The notes: generated by a model not told the origin, from the letters alone. 64,000 nt of DNA from Gemmatimonadales bacterium (GCA_025937755.1 JAICQR010000001.1:1542-65541), one strand, 5' to 3'. Numbered from the stretch's first letter, positions 3,704 to 55,659 are shown. Made by a program: numbers and translations.

Positions 3704-3706
3704 GGT

Positions 3707-3734
3707 GATTAGGGGTTAGGGATTAGGGGTTAGC
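3707..3734. repeat. Heptamer tandem array (GATTAGG/GGTTAGG x4)
   Basis: GATTAGG GGTTAGG GATTAGG GGTTAGC fills the 31-nt gap between two co-directional CDS. Confidence 0.9.
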
Positions 3735-7680: not shown

Positions 7681-7775
7681 GTGACCTCGGTGAGAAATCC
7701 TGATGCAACTTGGCCGCAGGGCGCCGAGGCCGCTAGGGCCTCCCCACTTCCCACTTGTCCCCTTACAGTTCGCTC

Positions 7776-8519: not shown

Positions 8520-8551
8520 CTTACCGCCTTACCGCCCTACCTCCTTACCGA
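8520..8551. repeat. Octamer tandem array (CTTACCGC x4, degenerate)
   Basis: CTTACCGC CTTACCGC CCTACCTC CTTACCGA lies between convergent cutC and the M14 gene and overlaps the last M14 codons. Confidence 0.8.
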
Positions 8552-12087: not shown

Positions 12088-12154
12088 CCGTTGCGTGTCG
12101 AGGTGGGACCGAATGGCCGGGGGAGGCCGGTCGGGGAAAGTGGGGCGACGAGTC

Positions 12155-12292
12155 GCGAGGCGCAAGGCGCAAGGCGCGAGGCGCGAGGCGCAACGCGCGA
12201 GGGGGCGAAGCAAAGTGGCGGAGCGCCCATTCGGCACCCCGCCACCTTCGCTTCAAACTCGAGACTCGAGGCTCGAGACTTGCGCCTCGCGA
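12155..12292. repeat. Inverted heptamer arrays (GCGAGGC/GCAAGGC x7 ... CTCGAGA/CTTGCGC x5)
   Basis: Array 12155-12203 and partly complementary array 12258-12292, separated by about 55 nt. It fills an intergenic gap. Confidence 0.85.
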
Positions 12293-13178: not shown

Positions 13179-13302
13179 ATACGGGATCCCCCTCGGGTCA
13201 ACGCGCCCGACCGGCCGACTCCCCAGCCGGCTGCCGAACGCGCTTCTACTACTGGCCCTAATCTAGGAAGCGTCAACGTTTCGTGTCGTGACGGCCATCA
13301 CA

Positions 13303-13397
13303 GGGATCAGGGGTCAGGGATCAGGGGTCAGGGATCAGGGGCCAGGGATCGGAGCCGAGGGCTGTGGCCCTGATCCCTGATCCCCGGCCCCTAACCC
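13303..13397. repeat. G-rich heptamer array (GGGATCA/GGGGTCA x7) with complementary arm
   Basis: 13303-13351 holds seven G3-4 runs with 3-4 nt loops on the plus strand. 13366-13397 (GGCCCTGATCCCTGATCCCC...) is the inverted arm. Confidence 0.9.
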
Positions 13398-13970
13398 CTA
13401 GCCGTTATACAGCACCCCTTCCCCTTCCTTATAAAGCGCCAGCACTGCCCGGGCCTCGGCCCGGAGCGGCCCTGCCTCGAACACCACCCCACGGGCCGCC
13501 AGGTAGCGGTGATCCTCGGGCGAGACCGGGCCCTCCTCGAAGCCCAGTTCGCGGGCATCCACCCCATGGGCGGCGAAGCTCACTCGCCGCACCCCGCTCC
13601 AGAGCGCCGCACCCATGCACATGGCGCAGGGCTCGCAGGACGTGAACAACTCGTGCTCGGGCAGCCCGGGCCCATGGAGTGTAAACGATTCCAGCCGGCG
13701 TCCCGCCAGCGAGAATGCCACCATCTCGGCGTGGAGGGTGCAGTCGTGCGCCGGGACCACGAGGTTAACGCCCACCGACACCAGCCTGCCGCTCTCCCGC
13801 TCGAAGATCGCCGCGCCGAATGGCCCGCCGGTCCGGTGCTCGACGTTCTGCCGCGACAACTCGACAGCGAGCGCCATCCGCTCGGCGTCGGAGGCGTACG
13901 TGGCGCCCCAGTCCACCTTGGAGCCGACCCAGGACGGCAACTCATAGCGCGCCGAGAGCACTGGCTTCAT
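13398..13970 (-). CDS. CMP/dCMP-type nucleoside (guanine/cytosine/tRNA-adenosine family) deaminase
   Basis: Zinc motifs CTLHAEMVAF and TSCEPCAMCMGAALWSG. Confidence 0.8.
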   Translation of the reverse strand: MKPVLSARYELPSWVGSKVDWGATYASDAERMALAVELSRQNVEHRTGGPFGAAIFERESGRLVSVGVNLVVPAHDCTLHAEMVAFSLAGRRLESFTLHGPGLPEHELFTSCEPCAMCMGAALWSGVRRVSFAAHGVDARELGFEEGPVSPEDHRYLAARGVVFEAGPLRAEARAVLALYKEGEGVLYNG

Positions 13971-18000: not shown

Positions 18001-18033
18001 GACGGCCGGACGCTCAGTCGCCCATCGGATCAT
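15016..18033 (-). CDS. RND efflux permease (AcrB/HAE family), second of a tandem pair
   Basis: 1005 aa with an AcrB-type N-terminus MIRWATERPAVVWASSIALLLAGG and 12-TM/large-loop organisation. ATGA overlap with the upstream RND gene. Confidence 0.85.
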   Translation of the reverse strand: MIRWATERPAVVWASSIALLLAGGVAFTRLPLATRGQVELPTLSVDAQWPGAAAELVEMYLTSPIEAAIQPVRGVKSSESTSSEGSAQIQVELDAGTDVQLARLNILERLEVLRPELPAGSSGPSVSNYVPDGLEEEPLLRFIVSGPYTPGALKDITDEQLVPRISATKGVAGVRPQGGASIGISVAYDGDRLRALGIAPEALRVALTDSRFVRAVGEHSEGAFQLAVRIEDQPAVLAELDEQPVVGPGGLVHRLGDLATIRPEEDDRGYFYRMNGRTAVGLMVSRLPGADAIKTAAAVREAVRATEPELPAGVQVRLQSDESVDLAKQLKELVLRGSIAFVAVLLVLALTLRNARSVALVMGSAAVAIAGTALGLFLLNIPANLLTLAGLGMGIGILVQNGLVVVQQMRDAPDTVSGRAAASRRILPAVVGATLTTAVVLFPFLYLQGNARATFIPFAAAFALALGWSVAASVIMIPALGEGHGMHQSGWPRSRRFYERIVRGLTRWRWATLMIAAGFVGLMAWAFVKKVPKSSFGAFFYGQRTVLSASLYFPRGSDPESVDRGMREFEALAVGVPGVEHVETRGSPDGAYMQVVFENEAGMGPLPYELQEALTQRALLIGGARVSVQGRGPGFYGGGGGGGVSNYRIKLLGYSYDGVEQLAMDLKRRLERIPRVRDVDINMGSFYSRERAVSVVLEPDRVALARYGLTAQDFGQAVAREVRGAVGAQRIEVGGEETDVMLKRSGARDRTLAQLSEAMLPSPLGSPVRLGDVSTVSEVEGLSSISREDQQYVRIVGYEFRGPPKLAQRTHDAFMEAISVPPGYWVGDQTFEWERDDSNKGLWLVFGIGVLLVVLAVAMVFDSVWAAAIVFLSLPVSLGGVVAAFWIAEEAFAREAAVGVILVVGLAVNQAILLVDAALEKRRLRGPGARRLSVQDVVDAAGERSGMIVLVTFTTLASLLPLAIGTDSASLFGSIALATVGGTVAGTLGAMFVVPAMVGGGGGKP

Positions 18034-21000
18034 CCGTCTATCCGTCCTGCCGTCTTGCCGTCTTGCCGTCTTGCCGCCCTCCGCTCCACCGCCGCGTACG
18101 CGGTCGGCAGCAGGAAGAACGTCACCAGCGTGGCGCTGACCGAGCCGCCGATCACGCCGGCGGCAAGCGGCTGGTAGAGTTCGCCGCCACTGCCGAAGCC
18201 GAACACCAGCGGCAGCACGCCGGTCACAGTGGTGAGTGAGGTCATCGCGATGGCGCGGAGCCGCTGGTGGCCGCCCAGGAGCACCGACTCGTCGATCCCG
18301 TGGCCTGCGGCCCGGAACCGGCGGATGGCGTCGAGCTTGACGACCGCGTCGTTGTCGGCGATGCCGATCATCACGATGATGCCGATGAGCGAGACCGCGT
18401 TGAGGCTCTGCCCGGTGAGCCAGAGCAGCAGGATGCCTCCGGCACCAGCCAGTGGCACGGTCAGCATTACTACCAGCGGAGTGCTGAAGCTGCTGAACTC
18501 ACCGGCAAGCACCAGGAACACGAGCGCCACCGACAGCACCGCCACCAGCAGCAGTTCGCGAGTGGTACGCTGCTGTTCTTCGTCGGCGCCCGTCACTTCC
18601 CATCGCATGCCTGCCGGCACCTCAACGCGCTCGAGTGCCTCACGCACGTCGCGTGACGCCCGGGCGGTACCACCTGCTTCGACCACTGCTTCCACCACCG
18701 CCACCGGACGCTGCCCGACCCGTACCACTTCCACTGGTGCGCGAGTCTCCTCAACCGACACCAGCTGGCCTACGGGAATCCCTTGCACCGGCGTCCTGAG
18801 CGCGGCAGCCAGGTTCTCGTTGGCGCTGCCGGCCAGCCGCACCCTGATGGGAGTGCGCCGGTCGGTCTCGCGTAGTTCGCTGGCCTCGACGCCACCCAAG
18901 CCGCCGGCCAGTGCGTCGGCCACGGCATCGACCGAGATGCCCCGCTCGGCGATGCGCTGCCGTTCCAGCGCGATCTCCACCTGCGGCTGGGTGCCGGCGT
19001 AGCCGTCACGCACGTCGGCCAGCCTCGGCAGGGAGTCGAGCGCTGCCCTCACGGTCGCGGCGAAACTCTCGGCTTCGTCCGCCCGTGCAGCCGAGATCTC
19101 CACCCGCACCAGCCGCCCCTCGCGACCGATCAGGCTGCCGAACTCCGACTGTCCCGCGAGGTCGAGCGCCAGCGCACCGCTCGCCAGGTCGGGCACCGCG
19201 GCGCGGAGTCCTTCGGCAAATCGCTCGGCAGACGTGCCGTCGGGCACCGGAATCAGGATCTGCGCCGTGGCCGAAGTGCCGGGGTCGGCGCCGGCCAGTA
19301 CCTCTTCGTCGGTGGCCAGGCCCACACGGGCATACACATCGGTGGCACCGAGCTCCCGCGCCGCGTCTTCGATACGCGCTGTCTGCTCGGTAGTGGTCTC
19401 GATGGCGCTGCCTTCAGGGAGCCGCAGTTCCGCCACCACCGTGCCTTCGTCCACCTGCGGCAGAATCTCCCGCGGCAGCCGCAGCGCCACCAGTGCCGTA
19501 ATCACCACCACGGCGAACGCCATGCCGAAGACCTCGCGCGGATGCGCCAGCGACCAGCGCATACCGCGGTCGTACCAGGCGGCGAGGCGGTCCCCGAGTA
19601 CCGAAAGGCGGTCGAGGCGGTCAGCGCGGTCGACATCTTCGCTGGTCACCGACCGCCTTGTCCCCCCTGACCGCCTTGACCGCCCTATGATCATCACCGG
19701 CATCAGCGTCAGCGCCAGCAGCAGCGACGCCGCCAGCGAGGTCACCACGCTCAACGAGAGATCCCGGAACAGCGCCGCTGCCAGCCCCCGTACGAACACG
19801 ATCGGCCCGAACACCAGCAGGGTCGTCAGCGTGCCTGCGATCAGCGGGCCGGAGACCTCGGAACACGCCTGCCGCGCAGCGTCGGCTATCGGCATTCCCT
19901 GTTCACGGAGCCGGCTGGTGGCTTCCGCCACGACGATGGCGTTGTCCACCAGCAGGCCGACGCCTAGCGCCAGTCCGCCGAGCGAGAGGATGTTGATGCT
20001 CACGTCGAGCATCTGCAGCACCACCAGCGCCATCAGTACCGACAGCGGGACAATCAGGCCGATGGCAAGGGAACTGCGCCAGTCGCGCAGGAACAGCAGG
20101 ATTACCAGCAGCGACAGAATCCCGCCCAGGAAGATTTCCTGGATCAGGTTGCCCAGTGCAGCGGTGACGAAGTCGGCCTGGGCCGCTACCAGCGTCATGC
20201 TGAACTGGGGAAACTCCTCTTCCAGCGCACCGATGGACTCCATGATGCCTTCGGTGACCTGCACCGTGTTGCTGCCGGCGTCCTTGTAGACCACGAGGCC
20301 GACCGCCGATGCACCATCGAGCCGGGTGAGCGTCCGCGGATCGGCGGCGGCCACGCGTACAGTCGCCACGTCGGCCAGCTGGACCCCACTGCCGGCCGGG
20401 CCGATCGGCGTCATGCCGACCTGTTCCGGGCTGGTGAACTCGGTGAGCGCCCGCACCGAAAAGCGGAACTGTCCTCGGCGGATGGTGCCGCCAGGCGCGC
20501 TCTGGTTGGCGGAGCGGATGGCGGTGGCAATTTCCTCGGGCGAGAGTCCCAGCGCGCGCATCCGCTCGGGATCCACGTCCACCCGGATCTCATCTTCCGG
20601 TGCGCCCACCACCGCTACGCTGGCGACGCCGTCGAGCTGCTCCAGCCTTCGGCTATGGACATCGAGCGCCGTGCGAGCCAGCGAGCGGAGATCGCCTTCG
20701 CCGGTGAGTGCCAGCACCGCGATGGGCCGTTCGCCCGGGTCGCTTGTCAGGAGTGTTGGTCGTTCGGCGCCGTCAGGGAGAGCTTCGCGGGCATTATCGA
20801 GCTGCTCGCGCACCCGGAGCACCGTGCTGGCCATGTCGGTGCCCCACGCGAACTGCGCGGTCGTGGTCGCCTCGCCATTGCGGCTAACGGAGCGAAGCTC
20901 CAGCAGACCCGGTGTCGCCGAGAGCGCCTGCTCCAGCGGCTCGGCCACGAAGCGCGACACTTCGGTGGCGGCGGCACCGGGGTACGCCGTGCGGACCGTG

Positions 21001-21134
21001 AGCACCGGCAGGGTGACGTCGGGCAGCAATGAGACCGGCAGCCGGGTGAGCGACACCGATCCCAGCAGCACCACCGCGATGGTCGCGGCGACGGTGGTGA
21101 CGGGACGTGAGATCGAGTAGGCGGAGAGCGACAT
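18030..21134 (-). CDS. RND efflux permease (AcrB/HAE family), first of a tandem pair
   Basis: 1034 aa. MSLSAYSISRPVTTVAATIAVVLLGSVSL..AYPGAAATEVS family N-terminus. Confidence 0.85.
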   Translation of the reverse strand: MSLSAYSISRPVTTVAATIAVVLLGSVSLTRLPVSLLPDVTLPVLTVRTAYPGAAATEVSRFVAEPLEQALSATPGLLELRSVSRNGEATTTAQFAWGTDMASTVLRVREQLDNAREALPDGAERPTLLTSDPGERPIAVLALTGEGDLRSLARTALDVHSRRLEQLDGVASVAVVGAPEDEIRVDVDPERMRALGLSPEEIATAIRSANQSAPGGTIRRGQFRFSVRALTEFTSPEQVGMTPIGPAGSGVQLADVATVRVAAADPRTLTRLDGASAVGLVVYKDAGSNTVQVTEGIMESIGALEEEFPQFSMTLVAAQADFVTAALGNLIQEIFLGGILSLLVILLFLRDWRSSLAIGLIVPLSVLMALVVLQMLDVSINILSLGGLALGVGLLVDNAIVVAEATSRLREQGMPIADAARQACSEVSGPLIAGTLTTLLVFGPIVFVRGLAAALFRDLSLSVVTSLAASLLLALTLMPVMIIGRSRRSGGTRRSVTSEDVDRADRLDRLSVLGDRLAAWYDRGMRWSLAHPREVFGMAFAVVVITALVALRLPREILPQVDEGTVVAELRLPEGSAIETTTEQTARIEDAARELGATDVYARVGLATDEEVLAGADPGTSATAQILIPVPDGTSAERFAEGLRAAVPDLASGALALDLAGQSEFGSLIGREGRLVRVEISAARADEAESFAATVRAALDSLPRLADVRDGYAGTQPQVEIALERQRIAERGISVDAVADALAGGLGGVEASELRETDRRTPIRVRLAGSANENLAAALRTPVQGIPVGQLVSVEETRAPVEVVRVGQRPVAVVEAVVEAGGTARASRDVREALERVEVPAGMRWEVTGADEEQQRTTRELLLVAVLSVALVFLVLAGEFSSFSTPLVVMLTVPLAGAGGILLLWLTGQSLNAVSLIGIIVMIGIADNDAVVKLDAIRRFRAAGHGIDESVLLGGHQRLRAIAMTSLTTVTGVLPLVFGFGSGGELYQPLAAGVIGGSVSATLVTFFLLPTAYAAVERRAARRQDGKTAGRIDG
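18034..18081. repeat. Octamer tandem array (CCGTCTTG x6, degenerate) at the RND-RND junction
   Basis: CCGTCTAT CCGTCCTG CCGTCTTG x3 CCGCCCTC lies inside the last 16 codons of the upstream RND gene. The unit is not a multiple of 3. Confidence 0.85.
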
Positions 21135-21140
21135 GTAGTC

Positions 21141-21205
21141 GAGAGTTGAGAGTAGAGAGTTGAGAGTTGGCTCTTAGCTCTCGACTCTCGACTCTTGACT
21201 CATGA
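21141..21205. repeat. Inverted heptamer arrays (GAGAGTT x4 / CTCTCGA x4)
   Basis: The 21141-21168 arm is intergenic. The 21178-21205 arm lies inside the MFP C-terminal codons (..SQESRVES). Confidence 0.85.
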
Positions 21206-22289
21206 CTACCTTCACCGGCGCGTCATGCGTCAGCGTCAGGTGCCCCTCAACCAGCACCGTGTCGCCCACCGCCACCGGGATCTGGCTGCTGGCGGAGTCG
21301 GGAAGCACTTCAGTCTCCCGGCCGTTGCTGCGCCCGGGATTGATGTACACCCACTGGGCCCGGCCGCCCTTCACCACGAACACCAGCGGGCGACCGCTGC
21401 GCTCCACCACCGCGCTGGCCGGCACCAGGATTCGATCGTCGAGTCGAGTGGATTCCAGCCGCACCTCGGCGGACATGCCCGGACGGAGGACGCCATTGCT
21501 GCGAAAGCGCACCAGCGCCCGGCCAGCACGGGTGACGGTGTCCACCAGTGGAAGCACCGCCGCAACCCGGCCGGTGATCTCCCGGCCAGGGGCTGCGGCC
21601 GAGGTGATCAGTGCCGTGCCACCTGAGCGGATGAGCGGAAGATCGTGCTCCAGCACCGAGGCCTCGATTTCGAGATCGTTCACATCGACAACGGTAGCGA
21701 TGGCATCGCCAGCGGCGACCCGGGTGCCGGGAGCCACATCGACGCGATCCACCACGCCGGTGAAGGGCGCGCGGATTACGGCCCGCTCGCGCTCGAGCTT
21801 TGCCCGGTCGAGACTGATCCGGGCGGTCTCGAGGCCCGAACTGGACGCCACGGCAGCACGTCGCTCCGGGCTGGGCGCCTGTCCTGATACCACCGAGTCG
21901 GGAATGATTACGCCGGCGTAGCGAGCCTCGGCCTCGCGGACGGCGGCCTCGGCGGCGGCGACTTCGAGATCGAACGGCTGGGGATCAAGAGCCACGAGCA
22001 GCTGGCCCCTGGTAACCCGCTGCCCCGGCTGTACCGGCACCCGCTGCACCGTGCCGGTGGCCTCGGCGCGGAGGCGTGCGACGGCGTCAGAGCGGACCTG
22101 GCCCCGGGTCGCAACCGTGAGGACCAGGTCGGCCCGCTGGACGGTGTCGCCGACGACAGGGAGGGAGAGCGTCGAGCTGCTGGATGCGGCGGTCGAGTCG
22201 GCGGAGGTTTCGTCCCCTTCGCCGTCCTTGCAAGCGGCGAGGGAGAGAGCCAGCAGCAAGGTGGCGACCAGCGGGCGTCCGGCGTCCAT
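21174..22289 (-). CDS. Efflux RND periplasmic adaptor (MFP) lipoprotein
   Basis: Lipobox LLLALSLAAC. Hairpin coiled-coil LVALDPQPFDLEVAAAEAAVREAEARY. Sits upstream of two RND genes (MdtABC-like order). Confidence 0.8.
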   Translation of the reverse strand: MDAGRPLVATLLLALSLAACKDGEGDETSADSTAASSSSTLSLPVVGDTVQRADLVLTVATRGQVRSDAVARLRAEATGTVQRVPVQPGQRVTRGQLLVALDPQPFDLEVAAAEAAVREAEARYAGVIIPDSVVSGQAPSPERRAAVASSSGLETARISLDRAKLERERAVIRAPFTGVVDRVDVAPGTRVAAGDAIATVVDVNDLEIEASVLEHDLPLIRSGGTALITSAAAPGREITGRVAAVLPLVDTVTRAGRALVRFRSNGVLRPGMSAEVRLESTRLDDRILVPASAVVERSGRPLVFVVKGGRAQWVYINPGRSNGRETEVLPDSASSQIPVAVGDTVLVEGHLTLTHDAPVKVVMSQESRVES

Positions 22290-25937: not shown

Positions 25938-26081
25938 CCAACCCAACTTACCACCAGATCCAGCACGAGCGACCCCGGAGCGAACCCGGCCTGTCGGTGC
26001 CGGTCTCTCCGGGGTCCTCGCATGCATGGCGCCTGGCCTGTTCCGCTTCGCTGACTGCTGGTGGCGCCAGCTTCTCACTTC

Positions 26082-26474
26082 TCACTTGGTTGCTATAACC
26101 ACCATCCCGTTCTTTGCATCAGGATCATGATTCTGTGGGTCGTACGGCAGCAGCACCCGCATCTCGGTCACCTGGTCCAGCACCCGGTCTTCTCGCGCCG
26201 GGCAGTCCCGCGCGATCGCGTGCACCCGGCCCAGTGGAATCCCGTTCACCACCAGCAGCACGGGATCCCGGTTCCGGTAGCCATGGTTTCCCGGCTCGGA
26301 CTCGAGGCGCGTCAGCATCCGGTTCGCCAGGCAACCGTACTCCCGCTGCGAGGCGCTGTCGGGGGACCCTGCGACCGTCATCGGTGCGACCCCGCTGTTG
26401 ACACCCTCCGGTGCGCATGCGCCGCCCAATGCCAGCGCCACGCCGACGATCGCTGCCGCCGCACGGTTCGTCAT
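26082..26474 (-). CDS. Small lipoprotein with TonB-dependent-receptor plug-like C-terminal motif
   Basis: Trimmed to Met14 (MTNRAAAAIVGVALALGGAC). C-terminus PVLLVVNGIPLG...NGMVVIATK resembles the start of a plug domain. The start is 1 nt after the upstream propeller stop. Confidence 0.55.
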   Translation of the reverse strand: MTNRAAAAIVGVALALGGACAPEGVNSGVAPMTVAGSPDSASQREYGCLANRMLTRLESEPGNHGYRNRDPVLLVVNGIPLGRVHAIARDCPAREDRVLDQVTEMRVLLPYDPQNHDPDAKNGMVVIATK

Positions 26475-26475
26475 G

Positions 26476-27570
26476 TCAGCTCTCCCGGACCGGTTGCCAG
26501 GCGCAGTCGTCATCCTCCACCAGCAGCTTGCGAATCACCGTGACCACCGGCTCCGCCTGCGTCAGCTGCTCCAGCACCAGCAGCGTATCTCCGCGGAATG
26601 CGATCACCGGCTGGGTCTCGCCCACCAGCGTGACTCGTGCATCGACACACGCCCGGGTCCGATCCGCCGACAGCAGGCTGGCGAACACCTCGGATTCGAT
26701 GGCATTGCCATCGAGAACCTGGTCGAAGTGCACCGTGACGATGCTCCCGTCCGAACGGCGGTGCAGGCCAAACAGCGCGCTGATCGCAGAGAACATTTCC
26801 GGGAAGGGCGTTGCCGGATCGGCCATCTTCTGCAGCGCTTCACGGGTCACTCCCTTGCGCCGGACAGCAGGAACCGTCACCTCGTCGACCGGTACACCGT
26901 CCGGGCCGGCCACCATGATTTCGCTGGTTCCGCTGAAGGCGACCAGCAGGCTGTCGCCCCACGCATCCACCCGTACCGCGTGGTGAATGCCGGCCAGAGG
27001 AGGTATCGCACGATAGGTGTCGGGAATGGGCAGGACTGGGCGCAGGATCGTGTCCGCCGTCCACTTGGTGAGTCCAGTCGCTTCATCCTGATTGGTGCCG
27101 GCCAGCCAGACGTCGAGACCAATCACCGCCGCATCGCGGACGATTGCCGCCGTCGAGATGCCGAAGAGCAACTCGTGCGATGGATCGAAAACGCTTATCC
27201 GATCCAGTTCGGCGTCCGAGACAGCGATCGTACCGTCCGGGCGTTCGATGACAGCGAACGGGCTGGCGAACTCTCCCGGGCCCTTCCCCTTGCCGCCGAA
27301 CATCCCCACCAGCCGGCCGTGGGCGTCGAAGTGGAGCACCCGCGCCTGCATGCCATCGGTGACCAGGTAGCCGCCGTCCGCCAGTGGCGACAGGTAATCC
27401 GGCTCGCCGAGGTAGATCGAGTCGTTCTCCTCCAGCACGACGCTGTCGCTGAACACCACGGTTGGTGGCGTCCCCTTCCCGACCGCGTCGCCGCCCGGCG
27501 CTCCGTCCCCGCTGCATGCGGCCGCCAGCACAACCAGCGCCGGCGGCCACAACCAGGATCGCCGCGTCAC
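26476..27570 (-). CDS. 6-bladed beta-propeller lipoprotein, paralog 2
   Basis: Start moved to GTG 27570 (VTRRSWLWPPALVVLAAACSG lipobox), which overlaps the mini-protein A stop as GTGA. FGGKGKGPGEFASPFAV. Confidence 0.7.
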   Translation of the reverse strand: MTRRSWLWPPALVVLAAACSGDGAPGGDAVGKGTPPTVVFSDSVVLEENDSIYLGEPDYLSPLADGGYLVTDGMQARVLHFDAHGRLVGMFGGKGKGPGEFASPFAVIERPDGTIAVSDAELDRISVFDPSHELLFGISTAAIVRDAAVIGLDVWLAGTNQDEATGLTKWTADTILRPVLPIPDTYRAIPPLAGIHHAVRVDAWGDSLLVAFSGTSEIMVAGPDGVPVDEVTVPAVRRKGVTREALQKMADPATPFPEMFSAISALFGLHRRSDGSIVTVHFDQVLDGNAIESEVFASLLSADRTRACVDARVTLVGETQPVIAFRGDTLLVLEQLTQAEPVVTVIRKLLVEDDDCAWQPVRES

Positions 27571-38689: not shown

Positions 38690-38742
38690 GGTTTCACAGC
38701 CTCAGGGGAGCGACACTATAACGCTTCCCCCAAAATCGCGAT

Positions 38743-38760
38743 ACTAGTACTTCTACTAGT
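38743..38760. promoter_or_regulatory. Palindrome ACTAGTA-CTTC-TACTAGT in an AT-rich island (candidate operator)
   Basis: 7-bp arms with a 4-nt spacer, located between the NarL-type regulator stop and the 118-aa gene. It contains TACTTCT, which fits the NarL heptamer TACYYMT. Confidence 0.35.
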
Positions 38761-38839
38761 CAAGAATTTGACAGTTTATGAAGATGACCGATTCCAGCGG
38801 TGGGAGCTCTCTAACTAGTTGATGCAGAAAAGCTTACGG

Positions 38840-39490
38840 CTAGACTAACCCTTCGGTGACCGCGTAGCGAACCAGGGCTGCGGTGCTGTTAAGCCCCAGA
38901 ATGTGCTTGATCCTTGCCCGATGGAACTCAACTGACCGGGCGCTCAACCCCAGCTCTTCGGCGATTTCCTCGGCGGTCCGGCCCCGGGCAATCATCACCA
39001 GCACCTCCCGCTGGCGCGGCGTCAGGGCCGTCAGCCCCCCCGTGGCGGGGTGGCCCCTCGGGTCGAGCCGGGCCTGCAGCGCCTCGGCCTCCTCGAGCGC
39101 GGGGGTCAGGTACTTCCGGCCCGCCATCGCCTCGGCGATGGCAAGGCGCAGCTCCTCGGCCCTGGCGCTCTTGAGCACGTAGCCCAGCGCACCCACCTTG
39201 ATCGCCTCGTCGGCGTAGATCCGGTCGGCATGCATGGTCACGATCACGACCGCGACCTCGGGATGCTGCTTCCGGATGTCGGCGCAAATTTCGAGACCGC
39301 TCCGTCCCGGAAGCGAAAGGTCCAGCAGCACCACGTCCGGCTTGAGCCGTGTCACCGCACCCAGCGCGCTCCTCCCGTCACCCTCCACACCGACGATGTC
39401 GTGATCCGCGTTCAGCATCGCGCTGATGCCCTCCACCATGAGCGCGTGGTCATCCACCAGCAGCAGGCGGGGTCGCGCCTTCATGTCGGC
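38840..39490 (-). CDS. NarL/FixJ-type response regulator (REC + LuxR HTH)
   Basis: Trimmed to Met33 (MKARPRLLLVDDHALMVEG..DVVLLDLSLPGRSG). LTPRQREVLVMIARGRTAEEIAEELGLSARSVEFHRARI. The upstream (GA)n extension is translated microsatellite. Confidence 0.9.
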   Translation of the reverse strand, partial: ADMKARPRLLLVDDHALMVEGISAMLNADHDIVGVEGDGRSALGAVTRLKPDVVLLDLSLPGRSGLEICADIRKQHPEVAVVIVTMHADRIYADEAIKVGALGYVLKSARAEELRLAIAEAMAGRKYLTPALEEAEALQARLDPRGHPATGGLTALTPRQREVLVMIARGRTAEEIAEELGLSARSVEFHRARIKHILGLNSTAALVRYAVTEGLV

Positions 39491-40344
39491 TCCATATCCG
39501 GCCCGGGCTCGAGCTCCGGCTCCGGCTCCGGCTCCGGCTCCAGCTCCAGCTCCAGCTCCGGCTCCAGATCCTTCGACGGTGCCCACGCGGTCACTCGGGT
39601 GCCGCCGCCCGGCGTGGAACGGATCATCACCCTTCCCTGCACCAGCTCCAGCCGCTCACGCAGACTGGTAAGGCCGAGGCCGGCCTTGGACGCGGCCGCC
39701 GAGGGATCGAACCCGACGCCGCCATCTTCCACTTCCAGCGTGATCCCGTCGGCGTCGGCCCTGAGCCGCAGATCCGCCGAGCCGGTGCCGGCGTGGCGCT
39801 GCACATTGCGCAACGATTCCTGGGCCACCCGGTACAGGGCAGTCGCCATCGGTTCGCGGACGGTCCGGGCGCCGGTGGCGACCGACACTCTAACGTCGAG
39901 CCCCTGAGCCTGGAACTCCGACCCCAGCTGCACCAACGCCGCCGGCAGCCCCAGGTGGTCCAGTGCCGCCGGATGCACCCGATGGGCCAGCCCCCGGATG
40001 CCGCCGGCCAGTTCGTCCAGCTCACCCCGGATTGCCGCCAGACGTCCGAGTGCCGGTGCCGGTGCCGGCTCGGCGGCGTCGTCCTTTTCGAGAACTTCCA
40101 GCTCGTGGCCCAGCATCGCCACTCGCTGGATGATGTCGTCGTGCAGCTCCCGGGCGAGCCACGCCCGCTCCTCTTCCTGGGCCGCGAGCAGCCGTCCGCC
40201 GAACCCCTTGGTGGCCGCCAGGAATCGCCGCTGCTGGATCACCACCGACGCGACGAAGGCCAGGCTCAGGATCAGGCCAACGACGACTGCGGCAACGAAG
40301 ACCCACCAGATCTGGTTCGTTCCTGTTGGCACCGGATCGCCCAC
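39481..40344 (-). CDS. HisKA_3-type sensor histidine kinase
   Basis: One N-terminal TM (IWWVFVAAVVVGLILSLAFV). H-box ARELHDDIIQRVAML. HATPase region GLGLTSLRERLELVQG. GTG start. (EP/EL)n C-terminal tail. Confidence 0.85.
   Translation of the reverse strand: MGDPVPTGTNQIWWVFVAAVVVGLILSLAFVASVVIQQRRFLAATKGFGGRLLAAQEEERAWLARELHDDIIQRVAMLGHELEVLEKDDAAEPAPAPALGRLAAIRGELDELAGGIRGLAHRVHPAALDHLGLPAALVQLGSEFQAQGLDVRVSVATGARTVREPMATALYRVAQESLRNVQRHAGTGSADLRLRADADGITLEVEDGGVGFDPSAAASKAGLGLTSLRERLELVQGRVMIRSTPGGGTRVTAWAPSKDLEPELELELEPEPEPEPELEPGPDMEPT
39513..39566. repeat. Hexamer microsatellite (GCTCCG/GCTCCA x9)
   Basis: Lies inside the 3' end of the kinase gene and encodes ..LEPELELELEPEPEPEPELEPG. 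It ends 23 nt upstream of the regulator start. Confidence 0.9.
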
Positions 40345-50220: not shown

Positions 50221-51938
50221 TCGCCCGCGCCTGTGCGTGGCTTCTGCCGGCGCTGCTGTTGCTGCCGGCCCCGGCCCTCGCGCAGCGGACCATCGAAATT
50301 CCCCGCTTCCACTCGCGTATCGTGGTGGAACAGGACGGGACCATCGACGTCACAGAGACGTTCACCGCCCGCTTCAATGGCTCGTGGAACGGCATCTATC
50401 GCACGGTGCCGGTGAAGTACCGCACCCCACAGGGCTTGAATTGGACTATCCGGATCGATCTCGTGTCGGTCACCGACGACCAGGGCAACGAGCTTCGCAC
50501 CGAGACGTCCCATCCGCGGCACTATGTCAAGTACAAGATCTGGGTGCCCGGCGCGCAGGACACCGAGCGCACCATCGTGCTCCACTACAGGGCAAAGAAT
50601 GCGCTTCGCTTCTTCGAGGACCACGACGAACTCTACTGGAACGCCACCGGCGACGAATGGGAAATGCCTCTCGGCATGGTTTCCGCCGAGGTCGTGCTCC
50701 CCGGCGACGCCAGCGGGATCCGGACGACGTCGTACAACGGGGTCGTGGGCTCCACTGCCGGCGATGCCGAGATCGCCCAGGCGGGGTCAAGCATTCGGTT
50801 TACGATGCCGAGGCCGCTGGAATATCTCGAGGGCCTGACTGTCGTGGTGGGCTGGGACAAGGGACTGATCCCGGAGCCGACGTTCCTGGACAAATCGATG
50901 GGGGTACTCGCCGCCAACTGGCCGCTGGGCGTTCCCTTCGCTGTGCTGGCGCTGATGCTCTGGATCTGGTCCCGGATTGGCCGGGATCCCCGGAAGCGTC
51001 CCATTGCAGTGCAGTATGAGCCCCCGGCGAACATGACGCCGGCCGAGGCGGGCACGCTCACCGACGAGCGGGTGGACATGCGCGACATCACCGCCACCAT
51101 CGTGGACCTCGCGGTGCGCGGGTTCCTCCGAATCGAGGAGACCGAGGAGCCGGTGCTCTTGGGGCTCTCGACCAAGCAGGAATTCACATTCCACGAGCTC
51201 CGGAAAGTCGACGGCCAGGTCGAGCTCGCGCCCCACGAGAGCAAGGTGCTGCGGGGCATCTTCAAGCACGGCAGCAGCGTCCCGCTCTCAGAGCTCAAGG
51301 ATGAGTTCTACACCGAGCTGAGCGGCATCAAGAACGGGGTGATGAACCAGCTCACCCTCAAGCAGCATTACCTGAGGCGGCCGGATCATGTGCGCGCCTG
51401 GGCGATTGCGGGCGGGCTGGTCTGCCTGCTGATCGTGATCTTCGGCGGCGGGATACTCTCCACCGTCTTGCAGCTCCAGCTCACGCCGGTGCCCTTTGTG
51501 ATTGCCGGCATCCTGAGCGCCATAATCATTGTGGTCATCGGCTGGAACATGCCGGCCCGGACCGAGAGCGGGACCCGCGCGCTGGAGCAGGTGCTCGGCT
51601 TCAGCGAGTTCCTCGAACGGGTGGACAAGGAGAAGTACGAGCACATCAAGCGCACACCGGAGATGTTCGAGCGCTTCCTTCCCTATGCCATGGCGTTCGG
51701 GGTCGAACAGCAGTGGTCAAAGGCATTCAAGGATATGTACATGGAGCCGCCGACCTGGTACGTCGGCAGCAACATGCACCTCTTCAATGCCACCAGCTTC
51801 TCACACAGCCTGTCGAGCATGTCCACTTCGGCGGCGTCGGCAATGAGCTCGGCGCCGAGAAGCTCGAGTGGCTCGGGATTCGGCGGCGGAGGCTTCTCGG
51901 GAGGAGGCGGCGGCGGGGGTGGGGGCGGAGGCTTCTAA
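50217..51938 (+). CDS. DUF2207 domain membrane protein
   Basis: GTG start overlapping the lemA stop (GTGA). Signal VIARACAWLLPALLLLPAPALA. IEIPRFHSRIVVEQDGTIDVTETF. Gly-rich tail GGGGFSGGGGGGGGGGGF. LemA-DUF2207 is a known pair. Confidence 0.8.
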   Translation: MIARACAWLLPALLLLPAPALAQRTIEIPRFHSRIVVEQDGTIDVTETFTARFNGSWNGIYRTVPVKYRTPQGLNWTIRIDLVSVTDDQGNELRTETSHPRHYVKYKIWVPGAQDTERTIVLHYRAKNALRFFEDHDELYWNATGDEWEMPLGMVSAEVVLPGDASGIRTTSYNGVVGSTAGDAEIAQAGSSIRFTMPRPLEYLEGLTVVVGWDKGLIPEPTFLDKSMGVLAANWPLGVPFAVLALMLWIWSRIGRDPRKRPIAVQYEPPANMTPAEAGTLTDERVDMRDITATIVDLAVRGFLRIEETEEPVLLGLSTKQEFTFHELRKVDGQVELAPHESKVLRGIFKHGSSVPLSELKDEFYTELSGIKNGVMNQLTLKQHYLRRPDHVRAWAIAGGLVCLLIVIFGGGILSTVLQLQLTPVPFVIAGILSAIIIVVIGWNMPARTESGTRALEQVLGFSEFLERVDKEKYEHIKRTPEMFERFLPYAMAFGVEQQWSKAFKDMYMEPPTWYVGSNMHLFNATSFSHSLSSMSTSAASAMSSAPRSSSGSGFGGGGFSGGGGGGGGGGGF

Positions 51939-52012
51939 CTAGTGGGAAGTGGGAAGTGGGAAGTGGGGTCACTTCTCACTTCCCACTTCTCACTTCTCAC
52001 TTCTCACTTCCT
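51938..52012. repeat. ACTAGT-(GGGAAGT)4 array plus inverted (ACTTCTC)6 arm
   Basis: ACTAGTGGGAAGTGGGAAGTGGGAAGTGGGG-tc-ACTTCTCACTTCCCACTTCTC... lies between convergent stops (51938 and 52011). Confidence 0.9.
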
Positions 52013-52649
52013 ACTGCTCGTTGGCTGTCGGATACGGGGCCGCCGGATACTTCCCGATCTTCTCTTCGGTGTACTCGCTGGCCCAGAAGTCGGGCGGGCC
52101 GTCGCTGTCCTGCACTTTGTTCACCACCGGCTTCACCCCCCGTTTCAGGTAAGCGGCGATGGCCCAGAGCTCGTCATCCGACATGTGCCGCCACGACGGC
52201 CACGGCATCGGTATGGCCAGGTACTTCGGGATCTCGGGAAAGTTGCCGACGCCCGGCGTGTTTCCGGTGATCTCGACGTCCGGCGTCTCGCCCGGGCGCA
52301 GCCCGAAGCGCAGCGCATTGAAGATCTGCCGCTCACTGAACCGGCCAATGCCGGTGGTGTTGTCCGGGGTGATGTTGCGGGGTCGGGTGATGAACGGCCC
52401 GACGCGGAAGTCCTGAAGCGTGTCCATCCTGCCCGCCAGCCACCCCTTGGCCTCGGGGTTGTTCTGCCCGCCATGGCAATCCCCGCACGCGTGACTGATC
52501 ACCAGCTGCCGGCCCCACAGCACCTGCGAATCCACTGCGGCCTCACGCTCGGTTACCGGCCTCCCCTCCAGCGGCCTGGACACGAGTGCGACGACCGCTC
52601 CCAGCAGACACACACCAGCTACAGCGCCAAGCCAAGTAGTCTTACCCAT
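52011..52649 (-). CDS. Membrane-anchored mono-haem c-type cytochrome
   Basis: Trimmed to Met23 (MGKTTWLGAVAGVCLLGAVVAL anchor). Haem site HACGDCHGG. Confidence 0.75.
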   Translation of the reverse strand: MGKTTWLGAVAGVCLLGAVVALVSRPLEGRPVTEREAAVDSQVLWGRQLVISHACGDCHGGQNNPEAKGWLAGRMDTLQDFRVGPFITRPRNITPDNTTGIGRFSERQIFNALRFGLRPGETPDVEITGNTPGVGNFPEIPKYLAIPMPWPSWRHMSDDELWAIAAYLKRGVKPVVNKVQDSDGPPDFWASEYTEEKIGKYPAAPYPTANEQ

Positions 52650-52680
52650 ACGCTTCGCTCCGGTTGCTTGTTGGCGAACC

Positions 52681-52725
52681 TTCCCACTTCCCACTTCCCA
52701 CTTCCCACTAGTCACTTCTCACTTC
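52681..52725. repeat. ACTAGT-(GGGAAGT)4 array (minus-strand G-rich) at the MCO / cytochrome c junction
   Basis: TTCCCAC x4 then TAGTCACTTCTCACTTC. ACTAGT contains the MCO TAG stop. Confidence 0.9.
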
Positions 52726-54105
52726 AAGTATCCCCATCATCCCATGGTCCTCATGGTCCAGGATGTGGCAATGGAACATCCATTTGCCGGGGAAATCATC
52801 GTACGTCACGATGAACCGCGCCGTCTCGTGCTTCGGCACGTTCACCGCATCCTTCCAGCTGGCAAACGGCTCTGGTACGCCATTCCTGTCGATCACCTGG
52901 AACCGGAACCCGTGAAGGTGGAAAGGATGGTCCATCCCCACGAGGTTCTCGACCTGCCAGATCTCGGTGGCGCCGACCGTGGAGCTGACGTCCACCCGAG
53001 ACATGTCCATCTGCTTGCCGTTGATGAGACCCTGGGACAGCACAACCACGCGAGTTGCCGTTGCCAGCGCGGTGTCGATCCGCTCGACCTTCCGCAGCGT
53101 TGGCGGCAGCATCGGCGGCGTCATTGGCGTGTCGGCGCTGTAGGTGAGCGTCGCGAGTCCGCGGGTCTGGTTCCAGTTGTCCGGCCGGGTCTGCGGGACG
53201 TAGCGATCATAGGGCAGCGCCTGCAGCACGGTGCTGCTTCCGGGCGCGCCGGTGCCTCGCACCAGGAACTCGACCCGTTCCGACGGCGAGACCAGCAGTT
53301 CCGCGACTTCCACCGGCCGCTCGAACAGCCCGCCATCGCTGCCAACGTGCAGCAGTGTCTGCCCCGCCAGCGCCAGCCGGTAGCTGCGGCCGGCCGAGGC
53401 GTTGATCACCCGCCAGCGCTGGACCTCGCCGCTCCGGATGGTGAGCGTTGGCATGACTTGGCCATTCACCAGCAGCAGTTCACCTTCGCGCCCGTTCTCC
53501 CGGTCGCGTCGGCCGTGCATCGAGTGCGGATCGGGGAGATCGATCTCGCCTGCCTCTGTCAGCCGATTGTCCGACAGGATCAGCACCTGCTCCGGCAAGG
53601 CAGCCAATGGATCGTCGGCCGCCCGGACGACGATGGCGCCGTAGAGGCCCCGCGCCACCTGCGGGCCGGTGCGGTGATTGGGATGCGGATGGTACCAGTA
53701 GGTGCCGGCGGTGCCGCGCGGAACAGTGAAGCGGTACTCGTAGGTCTCGCCTGGCGCGACTGGATGGAAGGGGCTTCCATCCGCATCGAACGGAACGTGA
53801 AAGCCGTGCCAGTGCACCGTGGTTTCGACCGGCAGGTCATTGCGGAAGGTGATGACGACCTCGTCGCCCTCGAAAAACTCGAGCGCGGGGCCGGGCACAG
53901 TGCCATTGTAACTGAAGACTGGAGTTGAGGTTCCGGCCCTGAGAGCAAGGCTGGACCTGGCAGCAGTGAGGGAGACTTCAACCTTGCGCGGTTCGACTGG
54001 GGCAACGTCAGGCGACAGCTGCGCCCGCGCTGCCCCCGCGACCGCGGTGCACGCCAGTACTGCCATCCATGGCGCGACCGACAGGGGGGTCACGATGCGC
54101 CTCAT
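52708..54105 (-). CDS. Canonical three-domain multicopper oxidase (CueO/laccase-like)
   Basis: Motifs in canonical order: TVHWHGFHV, YWYHPHPNHRTGPQVARGLYG, DHPFHLHGFRF, MFHCHILDHEDHGMMG. N-terminal signal. Confidence 0.85.
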   Translation of the reverse strand: MRRIVTPLSVAPWMAVLACTAVAGAARAQLSPDVAPVEPRKVEVSLTAARSSLALRAGTSTPVFSYNGTVPGPALEFFEGDEVVITFRNDLPVETTVHWHGFHVPFDADGSPFHPVAPGETYEYRFTVPRGTAGTYWYHPHPNHRTGPQVARGLYGAIVVRAADDPLAALPEQVLILSDNRLTEAGEIDLPDPHSMHGRRDRENGREGELLLVNGQVMPTLTIRSGEVQRWRVINASAGRSYRLALAGQTLLHVGSDGGLFERPVEVAELLVSPSERVEFLVRGTGAPGSSTVLQALPYDRYVPQTRPDNWNQTRGLATLTYSADTPMTPPMLPPTLRKVERIDTALATATRVVVLSQGLINGKQMDMSRVDVSSTVGATEIWQVENLVGMDHPFHLHGFRFQVIDRNGVPEPFASWKDAVNVPKHETARFIVTYDDFPGKWMFHCHILDHEDHGMMGILEVRSD

Positions 54106-54182
54106 GTGAGAGACCTTCGGCTGTTATGCGACGGCCATAAACTGTGGTGCGGTACCGCTTCGCGCCAGCCCCCGGCCCAGTG

Positions 54183-54740
54183 CTACTTCTCACTCCCCAC
54201 TTCCCACTTCCCACTTCCCACTGTTTTCACGCCCAGCCATATCGAGGCTGCGACGATCACCCACGCCACGAACCTCACGTCCCGGGCCAGGGTCAGGTCC
54301 TGGTCCAGCTTCCCCCAGGTCGCCAGCAGGAAGGTCCAGTCATGCTCGCCGCCGCCCACCAGCGGGAGCTCCTGGGCCCGGGCGTCCGCCACATAGCGGG
54401 CGATGTTCCAGAAGTTCTGCCCCACCCACCAGAGCGCCACGCTCGCGGCATGCCGGTCCTGATTTCGCCAGAACGACACCACGAACGCCAGCGGCAGAAT
54501 CAGCTGAAACAATGTGCCACCGAGCGCGGTAAGGACGTCCCCGCCCCACCCGAATACCAGGTGCCCCGTCTCGTGGATCGCCAGGTTCAGGGCATCGGGC
54601 AGGTGGAAGCGTGATGGCGTCAGTCCGCACCATACGCCGTACACCGCCAGCAGGCCGGTGAGCGCCAGACGCCACCGCCGTTCCGTGATACCGAGGTTGC
54701 TATTTTCGGTGATGCCGACTTCCGAAATCCCACTGCGCAT
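54183..54740 (-). CDS. Membrane protein with HExxH motif (M50B-like putative metalloprotease)
   Basis: AIHETGHLVFGWGG and 4-5 TM segments. The start is uncertain (54755 TTG or 54740 ATG). The last codons are translated GGGAAGT repeat (VGSGKWEVGSEK). Confidence 0.5.
   Translation of the reverse strand: MRSGISEVGITENSNLGITERRWRLALTGLLAVYGVWCGLTPSRFHLPDALNLAIHETGHLVFGWGGDVLTALGGTLFQLILPLAFVVSFWRNQDRHAASVALWWVGQNFWNIARYVADARAQELPLVGGGEHDWTFLLATWGKLDQDLTLARDVRFVAWVIVAASIWLGVKTVGSGKWEVGSEK
54185..54226. repeat. (GGGAAGT)n family array (minus-strand G-rich)
   Basis: ACTTCTC ACTCCCC ACTTCCC x3 ACTGTTT. Confidence 0.9.
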
Positions 54741-55659
54741 ACGCGATCTCCGCAAGCGCTACGATGACGTCATCGCCGTGGATGGCCTCGACCTCGAGGT
54801 CCTTCCCGGAGAATGCTTTGGACTGCTGGGACCCAACGGCGCCGGCAAGACCACCACCATCGAGATCTGCGAAGGGCTGACTGCCCCGGACAGCGGCAAC
54901 GTTGAGGTGCTCGGCCGCCACTGGGGCAGCAACGCCCAGCACCTGCGCGAGCGGCTCGGCATCCAGCTGCAGGAAACCCAGCTGGCGGAGAAGCTCTCGG
55001 TGCTCGAAACGTTGCGGCTGTTCCGCAGCTTCTATGCCCGTGGCCGCGACATCGAGGACGTGATCGCCCTGGTCCAGCTGGAAGAAAAGCGCCAGGCACG
55101 CGTGGGCGCCCTCTCTGGCGGCCAGAAGCAGCGGCTGGCCCTGGGCTGCGCCTTGGTGGGCGATCCCGAACTGGTCTTTCTGGATGAGCCCACTACCGGC
55201 CTCGATCCCCAGGCCCGGCGCCAGGTCTGGGAACTGGTGGAGCAGCTCAAGTCCACCGGCCGGACCATCCTGCTGACCACCCACTACATGGAAGAGGCCG
55301 AGCGGCTCTGTGACCGGGTGGCCATCGTCGACCATGGAAAGGTGATCGCCCTGGGCACGCCCCGGCAGTTGATCGCCGGCCTCGGCGCCGAGCAAATCGT
55401 CTTCTTCGCCATCGAGGACGAAGCTGGTGGTCGCTTCGGCGACGACGTTCGCCAGACCATCACCGAGGCGGTCGGCCGCCCGCCCCGCGCCACCGACGGC
55501 GGGTGGGAGCTGGGGGTGGACGCGCCCCATGTGGCGATTCCCGCGCTCCTCGCCGCGCTCAAGACCCACGACATGCCGCTGTCGGAACTGCGCACCCACT
55601 CGCCCACGCTGGAAGACGTCTTCGTGTCCCTCACCGGAAGGGCGCTGCGCGATGCCTGA
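54712..55659 (+). CDS. ABC transporter ATP-binding protein (ABC-2 type exporter)
   Basis: Trimmed to MPTSEIPLRIRDLRKRYDD. GLLGPNGAGKTTT, LSGGQKQRLALGCAL, VFLDEPTTGLDP. Confidence 0.9.
   Translation: MPTSEIPLRIRDLRKRYDDVIAVDGLDLEVLPGECFGLLGPNGAGKTTTIEICEGLTAPDSGNVEVLGRHWGSNAQHLRERLGIQLQETQLAEKLSVLETLRLFRSFYARGRDIEDVIALVQLEEKRQARVGALSGGQKQRLALGCALVGDPELVFLDEPTTGLDPQARRQVWELVEQLKSTGRTILLTTHYMEEAERLCDRVAIVDHGKVIALGTPRQLIAGLGAEQIVFFAIEDEAGGRFGDDVRQTITEAVGRPPRATDGGWELGVDAPHVAIPALLAALKTHDMPLSELRTHSPTLEDVFVSLTGRALRDA

Follow-up and report, generated by a model that had tools for sequence, protein, structure and literature searches.

We investigated the heptanucleotide repeat GGGAAGT in a stretch of 64,000 nucleotides from a Gemmatimonadales bacterium (GCA_025937755.1, JAICQR010000001.1:1542-65541), hereafter called the window. 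All coordinates are those of this whole 64-kb stretch, and the survey of arrays covered the window and the loci fetched for comparison with it. Toward the end of the window, a DUF2207 gene on the plus strand converges with a cytochrome c (cyt c) gene on the minus strand, which is preceded on that strand by a multicopper oxidase (MCO) gene and by the open reading frame (ORF) of a membrane protein. Tandem arrays of GGGAAGT or its variant GAGAAGT were found at 6–7 loci within the window, including those listed below; potential G-quadruplex sequences (PQS) are given where they belong to the description.

51938–52015, read on the plus strand: hairpin locus, consisting of ACTAGT(GGGAAGT)3GGGG, TC and six ACTTCTC/ACTTCCC units.
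51938–51968, plus strand: ACTAGT cap, then (GGGAAGT)3GGGG, with CTAGTGG as the first unit, in phase.
51969–52015, minus strand: second arm of the hairpin, TAG (the cyt c stop), then (GAAGTGA/GAAGTGG)6.
52680–52725, minus strand: array between MCO and cyt c, GAAGTGA GAAGTGA CTAGTGG (GAAGTGG)3 GAAGG.
54185–54222, minus strand: array upstream of MCO, (GGGAAGT)3 GGGGAGT GAGAAGT AG, with a PQS at 54195–54219.
28461–28489, minus strand: array in the gap from ORF 28489–29655 to ORF 27994–28446, CTAGTGG GAAGTGG GAAGTGG GGAGTGG.
26071–26087, minus strand: short copy, (GAGAAGT)2.4, with no G3 tract.
7739–7759, minus strand: short copy of about two units, GGGAAGTGGGGAGG read on the minus strand, with a CTAG at 7733.

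An earlier note on this DNA had reported four main and two short copies, and copies were found at all six of its positions. A two-unit probe, GGGAAGTGGGAAGT, matched the window 18 times with up to 2 mismatches, against 0.26 matches expected, and none of 100 shuffles attained this number. Tandem Repeats Finder (TRF) assigned period 7, with 3.7–6.6 copies and 87–100% matches, to the arrays at 28461, 51941, 52680 and 54185. Furthermore, the MCO gene was present at 100% identity in three independent Logan assemblies (unitigs L001–L003, from three runs), which terminated exactly within the arrays flanking MCO (window 52683–54220). This indicates that the arrays are real multi-copy sequence and not an artefact of one assembly; for the same reason, Logan assemblies are uninformative on the copy-number polymorphism of the arrays. 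Heptamer arrays systematically fragment short-read assemblies of this lineage.

The copies lie at stop codons and in intercistronic gaps, as the earlier note had described, and the three ACTAGT-headed copies that it had placed against stops (TAA at 51936, the MCO TAG at 52708 and TGA at 28489) are all correct. On the plus strand, the array at 51938 begins on the final base of the DUF2207 stop (TAA at 51936–51938, ACTAGT at 51938–51943); on the minus strand, the TAG within ACTAGT (52708–52710) is itself the MCO stop, and a TGA (28489–28491) abuts ACTAGT at 28484–28489. The cyt c stop (TAG, 52011–52013) is followed directly by GAAGTGA units on the sense strand of the gene, and the minus-strand ORF 26082–26534 ends at a TGA (26082–26084) inside the first unit of the short copy at 26071–26087. 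Between MCO and cyt c, a PQS (52683–52706) lies inside the 57-nt spacer, approximately 17 nt upstream of the GGAG preceding the cyt c ATG (52649). The copy at 7739–7759 is located approximately 20 nt upstream of an ATG (~7776), the putative start of a plus-strand ORF, and is C-rich on the sense strand of that ORF. Every copy of the family in the window was either G-rich on the sense strand behind a stop or C-rich on the sense strand ahead of a start, and the G-rich strand was the mRNA sense strand at 28461, 52681 and 54185, again in agreement with the earlier note.

Some of these arrays are translated. The GGGAAGT unit contains no stop codon in any frame, so that an array is able to supply short C-terminal tails, and two of the three frames are shut by stops at the array edges (TRACTAGT; GGGGAGTGAGAAGTAG). 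The membrane-protein ORF (54183–54755) reads through the entire array and stops at the distal TAG (54183–54185), its last 13 residues (TVGSGKWEVGSEK) being array-encoded. Likewise, the last two residues of MCO (SD) are array-encoded and lie past the usual end of the family (LEVR or LEVK, then the stop), and the EVR codons themselves are GAAGTGA units. Such tails were unlike between orthologs, including those of ORF 54183–54755. ORFs translating the repeat had been regarded as spurious; for some of them this does not hold, since the 13 codons of ORF 54183–54755 and the last 2 of MCO form real C-terminal tails. The C-terminus of the DUF2207 protein (window 51860–51935) carries a long glycine run (...GSGFGGGGFSGGGGGGGGGGGF), and the DUF2207 ortholog in SMAG_U2325, described below, has a similar G-rich tail directly ahead of a conserved TAACTAGT.

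The GGGAAGT arrays belong to a larger population. Among window arrays with three or more copies, 11 had period 7, 2 had period 6 and 1 had period 8 (periods 4–12 otherwise 0–3), and the shuffled window yielded 0.05 period-7 arrays. The period-7 arrays comprised at least six unrelated units. The proposal of a distinct ACTAGT-(GGGAAGT)n family was therefore not borne out: GGGAAGT is one unit family among many heptamer repeats, and the ACTAGT cap is confined to the lineage.

We then compared the window with related genomes. The homologs of MCO assigned the window to the Gemmatimonadales. The best named match of MCO, at 82% identity, was in the Gemmatimonadales metagenome-assembled genome SMAG_U2325 (GCA_035759745.1), and syntenic loci were recovered from GCA_002838105.1 (L118), SMAG_U2325 (L119) and a JGI soil contig (L120). 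Heptamer arrays occupied three orthologous intergenic sites in almost every one of these four genomes, and their units often differed, as follows.

Upstream of MCO: GGGAAGT in the window; GGGGCGT and CTCTCAA in L118; a GAGAGTC hairpin in L119; degenerate in L120.
Between MCO and cyt c: (GGGAAGT)4 in the window; (GGGGCCA/GGGACCA)6 in L118; no array in L119; (GAGAAGT)3 in L120.
Convergent cyt c/DUF2207 site, with hairpins: GGGAAGT-type in the window and L119; GCTTCGA-type in L118 and L120.

Unit types have thus turned over at sites that kept their arrays. The convergent-site hairpins of the window and L119 have in common a conserved CCCACTAGTTAGAA at the DUF2207 stop, and SMAG_U2325 carries GGGAAGT, GGGGTTA and GGGRTCA units, the repertoire of the window, with GGGAAGT arrays on at least 10 contigs. 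A protein scan of metagenomes with cyt c gave 80 Gemmatimonadota loci (59–86% identity). Period-7 arrays numbered 11 over the 64 kb of the window and 7 over 31 kb of L118–L120, compared with 1 over 306 kb from about 80 relatives; this contrast indicates that heptamer richness is a trait of a sub-lineage, with an approximately 50-fold difference. In distant relatives, the spacer between MCO and cyt c was compact where readable (stop, AGGAG, ATG) and held no array.

Across bacteria, (GGGAAGT)3 was found in at least 114 stretches of species-representative genomes. Among the matches listed, the hosts included Gemmatimonadota, Microcystis, Spirulina, Aliinostoc, Bacteroidota, Planctomycetota, Verrucomicrobiota, Acidobacteriota, Elusimicrobiota, Gallionella and others, and the 8-kb neighbourhoods of these matches contained 99 further period-7 arrays of unrelated units (123 per Mb). 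The repeat was rare in viral contigs (12 matches), and a phage origin was set aside. We analyzed the placement of about 90 GGGAAGT arrays across phyla, again among the matches listed, scoring a stop when a long ORF ended within −40 to +15 nt of the array and a start when an ORF began no more than 80 nt after it. Behind stops, the G-rich strand was the sense strand in 38 cases and the C-rich strand in 11 (p = 1.4e-4), whereas ahead of starts the C-rich strand was sense in 18 and the G-rich strand in 6. Regardless of ORF orientation, the 5′ end of the G-rich strand was anchored at the ORF boundary in 56 cases against 17. The earlier note had proposed a census of strand bias, and such a bias was also found at the fetched Gemmatimonadales loci (18 G-sense vs 6 C-sense), where the GC3-based gene caller is crude, the "deep-in-gene" and "no-stop-near" classes include miscalls, and DUF2207 was missed.

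At the convergent site, each gene presents a stop and then a purine-rich array on its own sense strand, so that the two arrays pair as an inverted hairpin at 51938–52015. Its stem spans 27–28 bp (51941–52008), with folding energies of −49.7 kcal/mol on the plus strand and −38.4 kcal/mol on the minus strand. Hairpins with stems of 25–30 bp (−40 to −60 kcal/mol) were present at this site in all four heptamer-rich genomes, and distant relatives carried ordinary terminator hairpins there, some with U-tracts. We infer terminator activity of the 51938–52015 hairpin from its position only. The earlier note had described a degenerate inverted arm, (ACTTCTC)n, following many copies; this is true only at 51938–52015, and the segments at 52713–52725 and 54185–54197 are array variants in the same orientation. 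Single arrays had the folding energy of shuffled controls (z ~0), and three of the four main copies lacked an inverted arm. A scan of 49–56 kb for terminator and promoter consensus sequences gave no match at the arrays, and a search of the whole window on both strands against Rfam 15 gave no family match at the gathering threshold. The GGGAAGT hairpin was 11 kcal/mol more stable on the plus strand, and an AGTTGAG hairpin elsewhere in the window was 16 kcal/mol more stable on the strand antisense to the operon. We rejected this G·U asymmetry as a sign of selection at the RNA level, as it merely reflects A/G unit variants. At the terminator position, heptamer-poor relatives had other short-period arrays, or CTGCAA-type hexamer motifs with hairpins; one contig (L124, ~4035–4100) carried an octamer, (GACGGCAG)n, and such sites also occurred downstream of cyt c in L146 and in L142, L151 and L156.

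Taken together, these results lead us to favor, with a probability of roughly 60%, the explanation that the GGGAAGT arrays are one heptanucleotide simple sequence repeat (SSR) family within a genome-wide population of such repeats in this lineage, resized by slippage and kept at harmless positions. Slipped-strand mispairing with a strong preference for period 7 would seed and resize the arrays, and unit types would be replaced and homogenised inside them. Arrays would survive only where they do no harm, that is, in the first few dozen bases past a stop or in the last few codons. Either selection or a polar origin would leave the G-rich strand as sense behind stops and the C-rich strand as sense just ahead of starts. 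Where genes converge, two arrays would meet, and the resulting 25–30 bp hairpin would replace the ordinary terminator stem.

Several observations weigh against this explanation. Plain slippage leaves unexplained why one unit recurs at 6–7 places over 64 kb and at far more in sister genomes, and it does not account for the preference for period 7. The strong orientation bias could reflect a function instead of a filter. Five of the eight PQS in the window lie inside heptamer arrays, and four is the modal number of tracts in the arrays. The 51941–52008 stem is not followed by a T-run on either strand, as an intrinsic terminator would be. Finally, about 8 of about 19 Gemmatimonadales arrays bear the cap in a CTAG-poor genome, which suggests either the copying of a module or some specific constraint.

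The bias and the tract numbers would be expected if the arrays worked as G-quadruplexes (G4). Here, sense RNA with four or more GGGAAGU units, or the non-template DNA strand, would fold past stops; the structures would shield transcript 3′ ends, cause pausing of RNA polymerase or of ribosomes, or adjust how the next cistron is translated. We consider such a function unlikely, although part of its premise holds. The earlier note had claimed four G-tracts fitting the G3+N1–7 rule: the arrays at 51944 (51944–51968), 52683 and 54195 contain canonical four-tract PQS, and the G4Hunter scoring that the note had suggested gave 1.56–1.84 for these three, but no more than three G3+ tracts and one GG were counted at 28461, and zero or two tracts in the short copies. 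The enrichment of PQS in arrays occurs against an overall depletion in the window (8 vs 20.8 ± 4.2 in composition-matched shuffles). K+-dependent G4 formation in vitro has been reported for a sequence of nearly the same layout, (GGGAATC)3GGG (T1/2 50.4 °C in 100 mM KCl), and Xanthomonas arrays preferentially comprise four units (PMC4692102). By analogy, the four-tract arrays can probably fold into G4 in vitro. In addition, the site between MCO and cyt c carries different G3-containing units in two genomes.

However, the variation among units does not follow the G-tract. In 413 in-phase flanking units of 117 GGGAAGT arrays (among the matches listed), 164 of 446 mismatches fell on G1 and 90 on G2, compared with 33 on G3, 15 on A5 and 28 on G6 (p = 8e-36); conservation within the unit is highest in the GAAG core and lowest at G1 and G2. 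The common variants AGGAAGT, TGGAAGT, GAGAAGT and CGGAAGT all abolish the G-tract. Among the 99 co-resident heptamer arrays of the listed GGGAAGT-bearing genomes, only 24 had a G3 or C3 run. At the orthologous site between MCO and cyt c, L120 has (GAGAAGT)3 and L119 has no array. These observations argue for persistence of the period and of the GAAG core rather than of the capacity to form G4. Moreover, the 51944 PQS is locked in the hairpin of about −50 kcal/mol, and the authors who described the Xanthomonas repeats found no regulatory role for them (PMC4692102). An apparent enrichment of G3 units in the non-GGGAAGT arrays of the lineage (12/23; p = 0.16 for an assumed expectation of 40%; simulation at 66% GC gave 33%) was weak and was set aside. 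RNA G4s or hairpins as regulators, or as the reason for which the arrays exist, are therefore not supported by the variable G1 and G2, the orthologs lacking G3 tracts and the single arrays that fold no better than shuffles. Judging from the sequences, G4 capacity looks incidental, a by-product of unit composition and not a selected function.

The ACTAGT cap raises a different possibility. ACTAGT is in phase with the array, its CTAGTGG replacing GAAGTGG as the first unit, and TAA or TGA precedes it. In the window, ACTAGT occurs 6 times against 1.9 expected, and all six adjoin GAAGT-type units, whereas CTAG is depleted about five-fold (16 vs 88 expected). The residual CTAGs are mostly array caps or TAG stop codons. 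Across phyla, CTAG was found at 5 of 111 array 5′ junctions (among the matches listed); ACTAGT as a universal part of the element was ruled out on this ground, and the cap is specific to the lineage. CTAGT occurs on both sides of an array only in L010, and on one side only in the window copies. A cluster of ACTAGT sites was also noted.

38743–38819: three ACTAGT sites, including ACTAGT-ACTTCT-ACTAGT, in an AT-rich spacer of about 140 nt (38700–38840).

The ACTAGT-ACTTCT-ACTAGT segment looks like a degenerate one-unit copy of a capped module, and the spacer could be the remnant of a capped array after decay, or the scar of an insertion.

These features would be compatible with active, lineage-specific installation, either by a mobile ACTAGT-capped module or by an enzyme writing 7-nt repeats at ORF boundaries. 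In this lineage and in the other heptamer-rich bacteria, a factor gained or lost from lineage to lineage would write or copy arrays from ORF boundaries with fixed polarity, the 5′ end of the G-rich strand being tied either to a stop codon or to the start of an ORF on the opposite strand; CTAGTGG-capped (GGGAAGT)n would be copied, and sites would be re-written with other units. The approximately 50-fold jump in density between related lineages, the recurrence of one unit at numerous loci, the presence of the cap where CTAG is otherwise scarce, the CTAGT flanking an array at either end in L010, the anchoring of the G-rich strand (56 vs 17) and the patchy distribution over phyla are all in line with this scheme. 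We nevertheless regard installation, by a module or by a writing factor, as doubtful: no terminal inverted repeats, consistent target-site duplication or associated transposase were found, the cap is absent from most arrays and nearly so outside the lineage, few viral contigs carry an array, and the sharing of convergent-site families between the window and L119 and between L118 and L120 fits vertical inheritance.

The conservation of the GAAG(T) core, most pronounced of all positions in the 117 arrays from many phyla, could also suggest multivalent binding sites, with the core bound by an RNA-binding protein (for example S1, Csp or CsrA) or a DNA-binding protein. The same unit does occur at many loci and in many phyla with a placement specific in its orientation to the ORF, and an RNA-binding protein has been hypothesised for arrays of TAACTGA (PMC4679880). 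Conversely, the units at orthologous sites are unrelated and thus retain no common recognition sequence, a given genome contains a variety of unrelated units, no candidate protein was identified and the neighbouring genes have no common function; we hold protein binding to be still more doubtful than installation. Phase variation, in which a change in copy number would switch genes through the reading frame or promoter spacing, is very improbable: 7 is not a multiple of 3 and several arrays overlap coding 3′ ends, but the arrays lie at 3′ ends and not in 5′ coding regions or promoters, edge stops confine the effect of any frame change to a few residues of the tail, the arrays adjoin metabolic and housekeeping genes, and PMC4692102 likewise concluded against it.

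The other short-period arrays of the window are listed here.

3707–3733, plus strand: (TTAGGGG)3.6, filling the 31-nt gap (3704–3734) from the stop of a xylose-isomerase-like gene (3735) to the start of a GMC oxidoreductase gene (3703).
13301–13399: (CAGGGAT/CAGGGGT)n with an inverted CCCTGAT/CCCCTAA arm, forming a hairpin of about −70 kcal/mol on either strand.
21135–21209: (AGTTGAG)n and (CTCTCGA)n, without G-tracts, between the gene of a HlyD-type membrane fusion protein (MFP) and the next large gene.
12144–12292: (GGCGCGA)8 and (ACTCGAG)3 with a distal complementary segment, a large composite structure.
18034–18076, minus strand: octamer (CCGTCTTG)5.4, encoding the C-terminal tail of a 1034-aa ORF (18030–21134).
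8520–8550: octamer (CTTACCGC)3.9 at a gene boundary.

At 13301–13399, the G-rich arm starts, on the sense strand, with a deaminase TAG stop (13398), and this array holds two of the eight PQS in the window. The tail of the MFP, SQESRVES, is encoded by the second arm of the array at 21135–21209. No shared functional theme was apparent among the genes adjoining arrays (MCO, cytochrome c, DUF2207, GMC oxidoreductase, deaminase, HlyD-type MFP and the 1034-aa ORF). The repeat at 3707 is telomere-like and C-rich on the sense strand, and the GMC oxidoreductase gene begins with TTG; no Shine-Dalgarno sequence was visible in the 31-nt gap (3704–3734) before it. The octamer array at 18034–18076 also abuts the start of an adjacent 1005-aa gene. 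Where high-GC3 ORFs of the two strands overlap, a (TCCGGC)11.5 repeat (period 6/12/18; 39487–39571) probably represents low-complexity coding sequence.

Upstream of MCO, a leader of about 70 nt contains a palindrome, GCGGTACCGC, with the core CGGTACCG (window 54149–54158), approximately 45–55 nt ahead of the start codon. Counterparts are located at ~9878–9890 in L118, ~2662–2672 in L119 and ~948–958 in L120; L118 has a partial core (GTACCGC), whereas the window, L119 and L120 retain it in full. This palindrome may be an operator or promoter element of the copper-oxidase gene, in which case MCO would possess a separate promoter, located downstream of the array at 54185.

Records of heptamer repeats in bacteria go back to 1990, documentation of their over-representation to 2007 and that of the G-rich subset to 2015. 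To these, the window adds a high-GC lineage, neither cyanobacterial nor proteobacterial, that carries heptamer arrays, and its comparison with relatives adds syntenic sites with swapped units. Sister lineages that have the same genes and differ about 50-fold in array density provide a clean natural contrast, and material for locating the responsible factor by phylogenetic profiling. The natural (GGGAAGT)4 and (GAGAAGT)3 alleles at one site would allow G4 effects to be distinguished from those of a plain repeat. In practice, the arrays break short-read assemblies and yield false ORFs and altered C-termini in annotation. We found no literature on such repeats in Gemmatimonadota.

Several known systems resemble the arrays in part. 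The long stem-loop at 51938–52015 between convergent genes is reminiscent of REP/BIME elements or intrinsic terminators, but it is built of tandem heptamers and has neither a unique palindrome nor a U-tract. REP/BIME elements were ruled out, as three of the four main copies lack an inverted arm and folding energies equal those of shuffles; an origin from a MITE or insertion sequence was ruled out, as no terminal inverted repeats or target-site duplications were found. SSRs of contingency loci are likewise slippage-prone short tandem repeats, but they have units of 1–5 nt in the 5′ coding regions or promoters of surface genes, whereas the window arrays have a 7-nt unit at the 3′ ends of metabolic genes. 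TAACTGA direct repeats, known from Beggiatoaceae, Cyanobacteria and Bacteroidetes (MacGregor 2015, PMC4679880), are closer: they are also heptameric, oriented relative to ORFs and patchy over phyla, occurring at well over a hundred intergenic sites, but TAACTGA lies directly upstream of starts and contains stops, whereas GGGAAGT lies mainly behind stops and is open in all frames.

The closest relatives of the arrays are two classes of heptamer repeats. Cyanobacteria carry short tandemly repeated repetitive (STRR) heptamers, such as CCCCAGT. As with these, several heptamer units occur per genome in intergenic tandem arrays, and GGGAAGT itself is found in Microcystis, Spirulina and Aliinostoc; the differences are the phylum, the GC content (66% here) and the set of units. 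Heptanucleotides of Calothrix PCC 7601 are among those cited in PMC4692102, which also describes the over-representation of heptamers among bacterial SSRs. The second class is that of Rehm et al. (2015), namely GGGAATC in Xanthomonas and GGGGA(C/T)T in Nostoc PCC 7120, which are intergenic with four units preferred (PMC4692102). These repeats lie no more than 50 bp after stops on the coding strand, include 70–75 convergent inverted pairs and form G4 in vitro, with no known function (PMC4692102). The resemblance is extensive: a 7-nt unit with a G3–4 tract and a 3–4 nt loop, many dispersed and mostly intergenic loci, a C-rich sense strand upstream of starts, convergent inverted pairs, a frequent number of four units, neighbours without shared function, and sites conserved among relatives while length and sequence vary. 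In contrast, the window arrays differ in the GGGAAGT unit, the abundance of GAGAAGT variants free of G-tracts, the Gemmatimonadales host, the in-phase CTAGTGG (ACTAGT) first unit that carries or abuts the stop, and the unrelated heptamers at orthologous sites of sister genomes. The GGGAAGT/GAGAAGT arrays thus belong in one class with the STRR of cyanobacteria and the G-rich Xanthomonas and Nostoc repeats, and bring to it a new unit, a new host lineage and a new cap.

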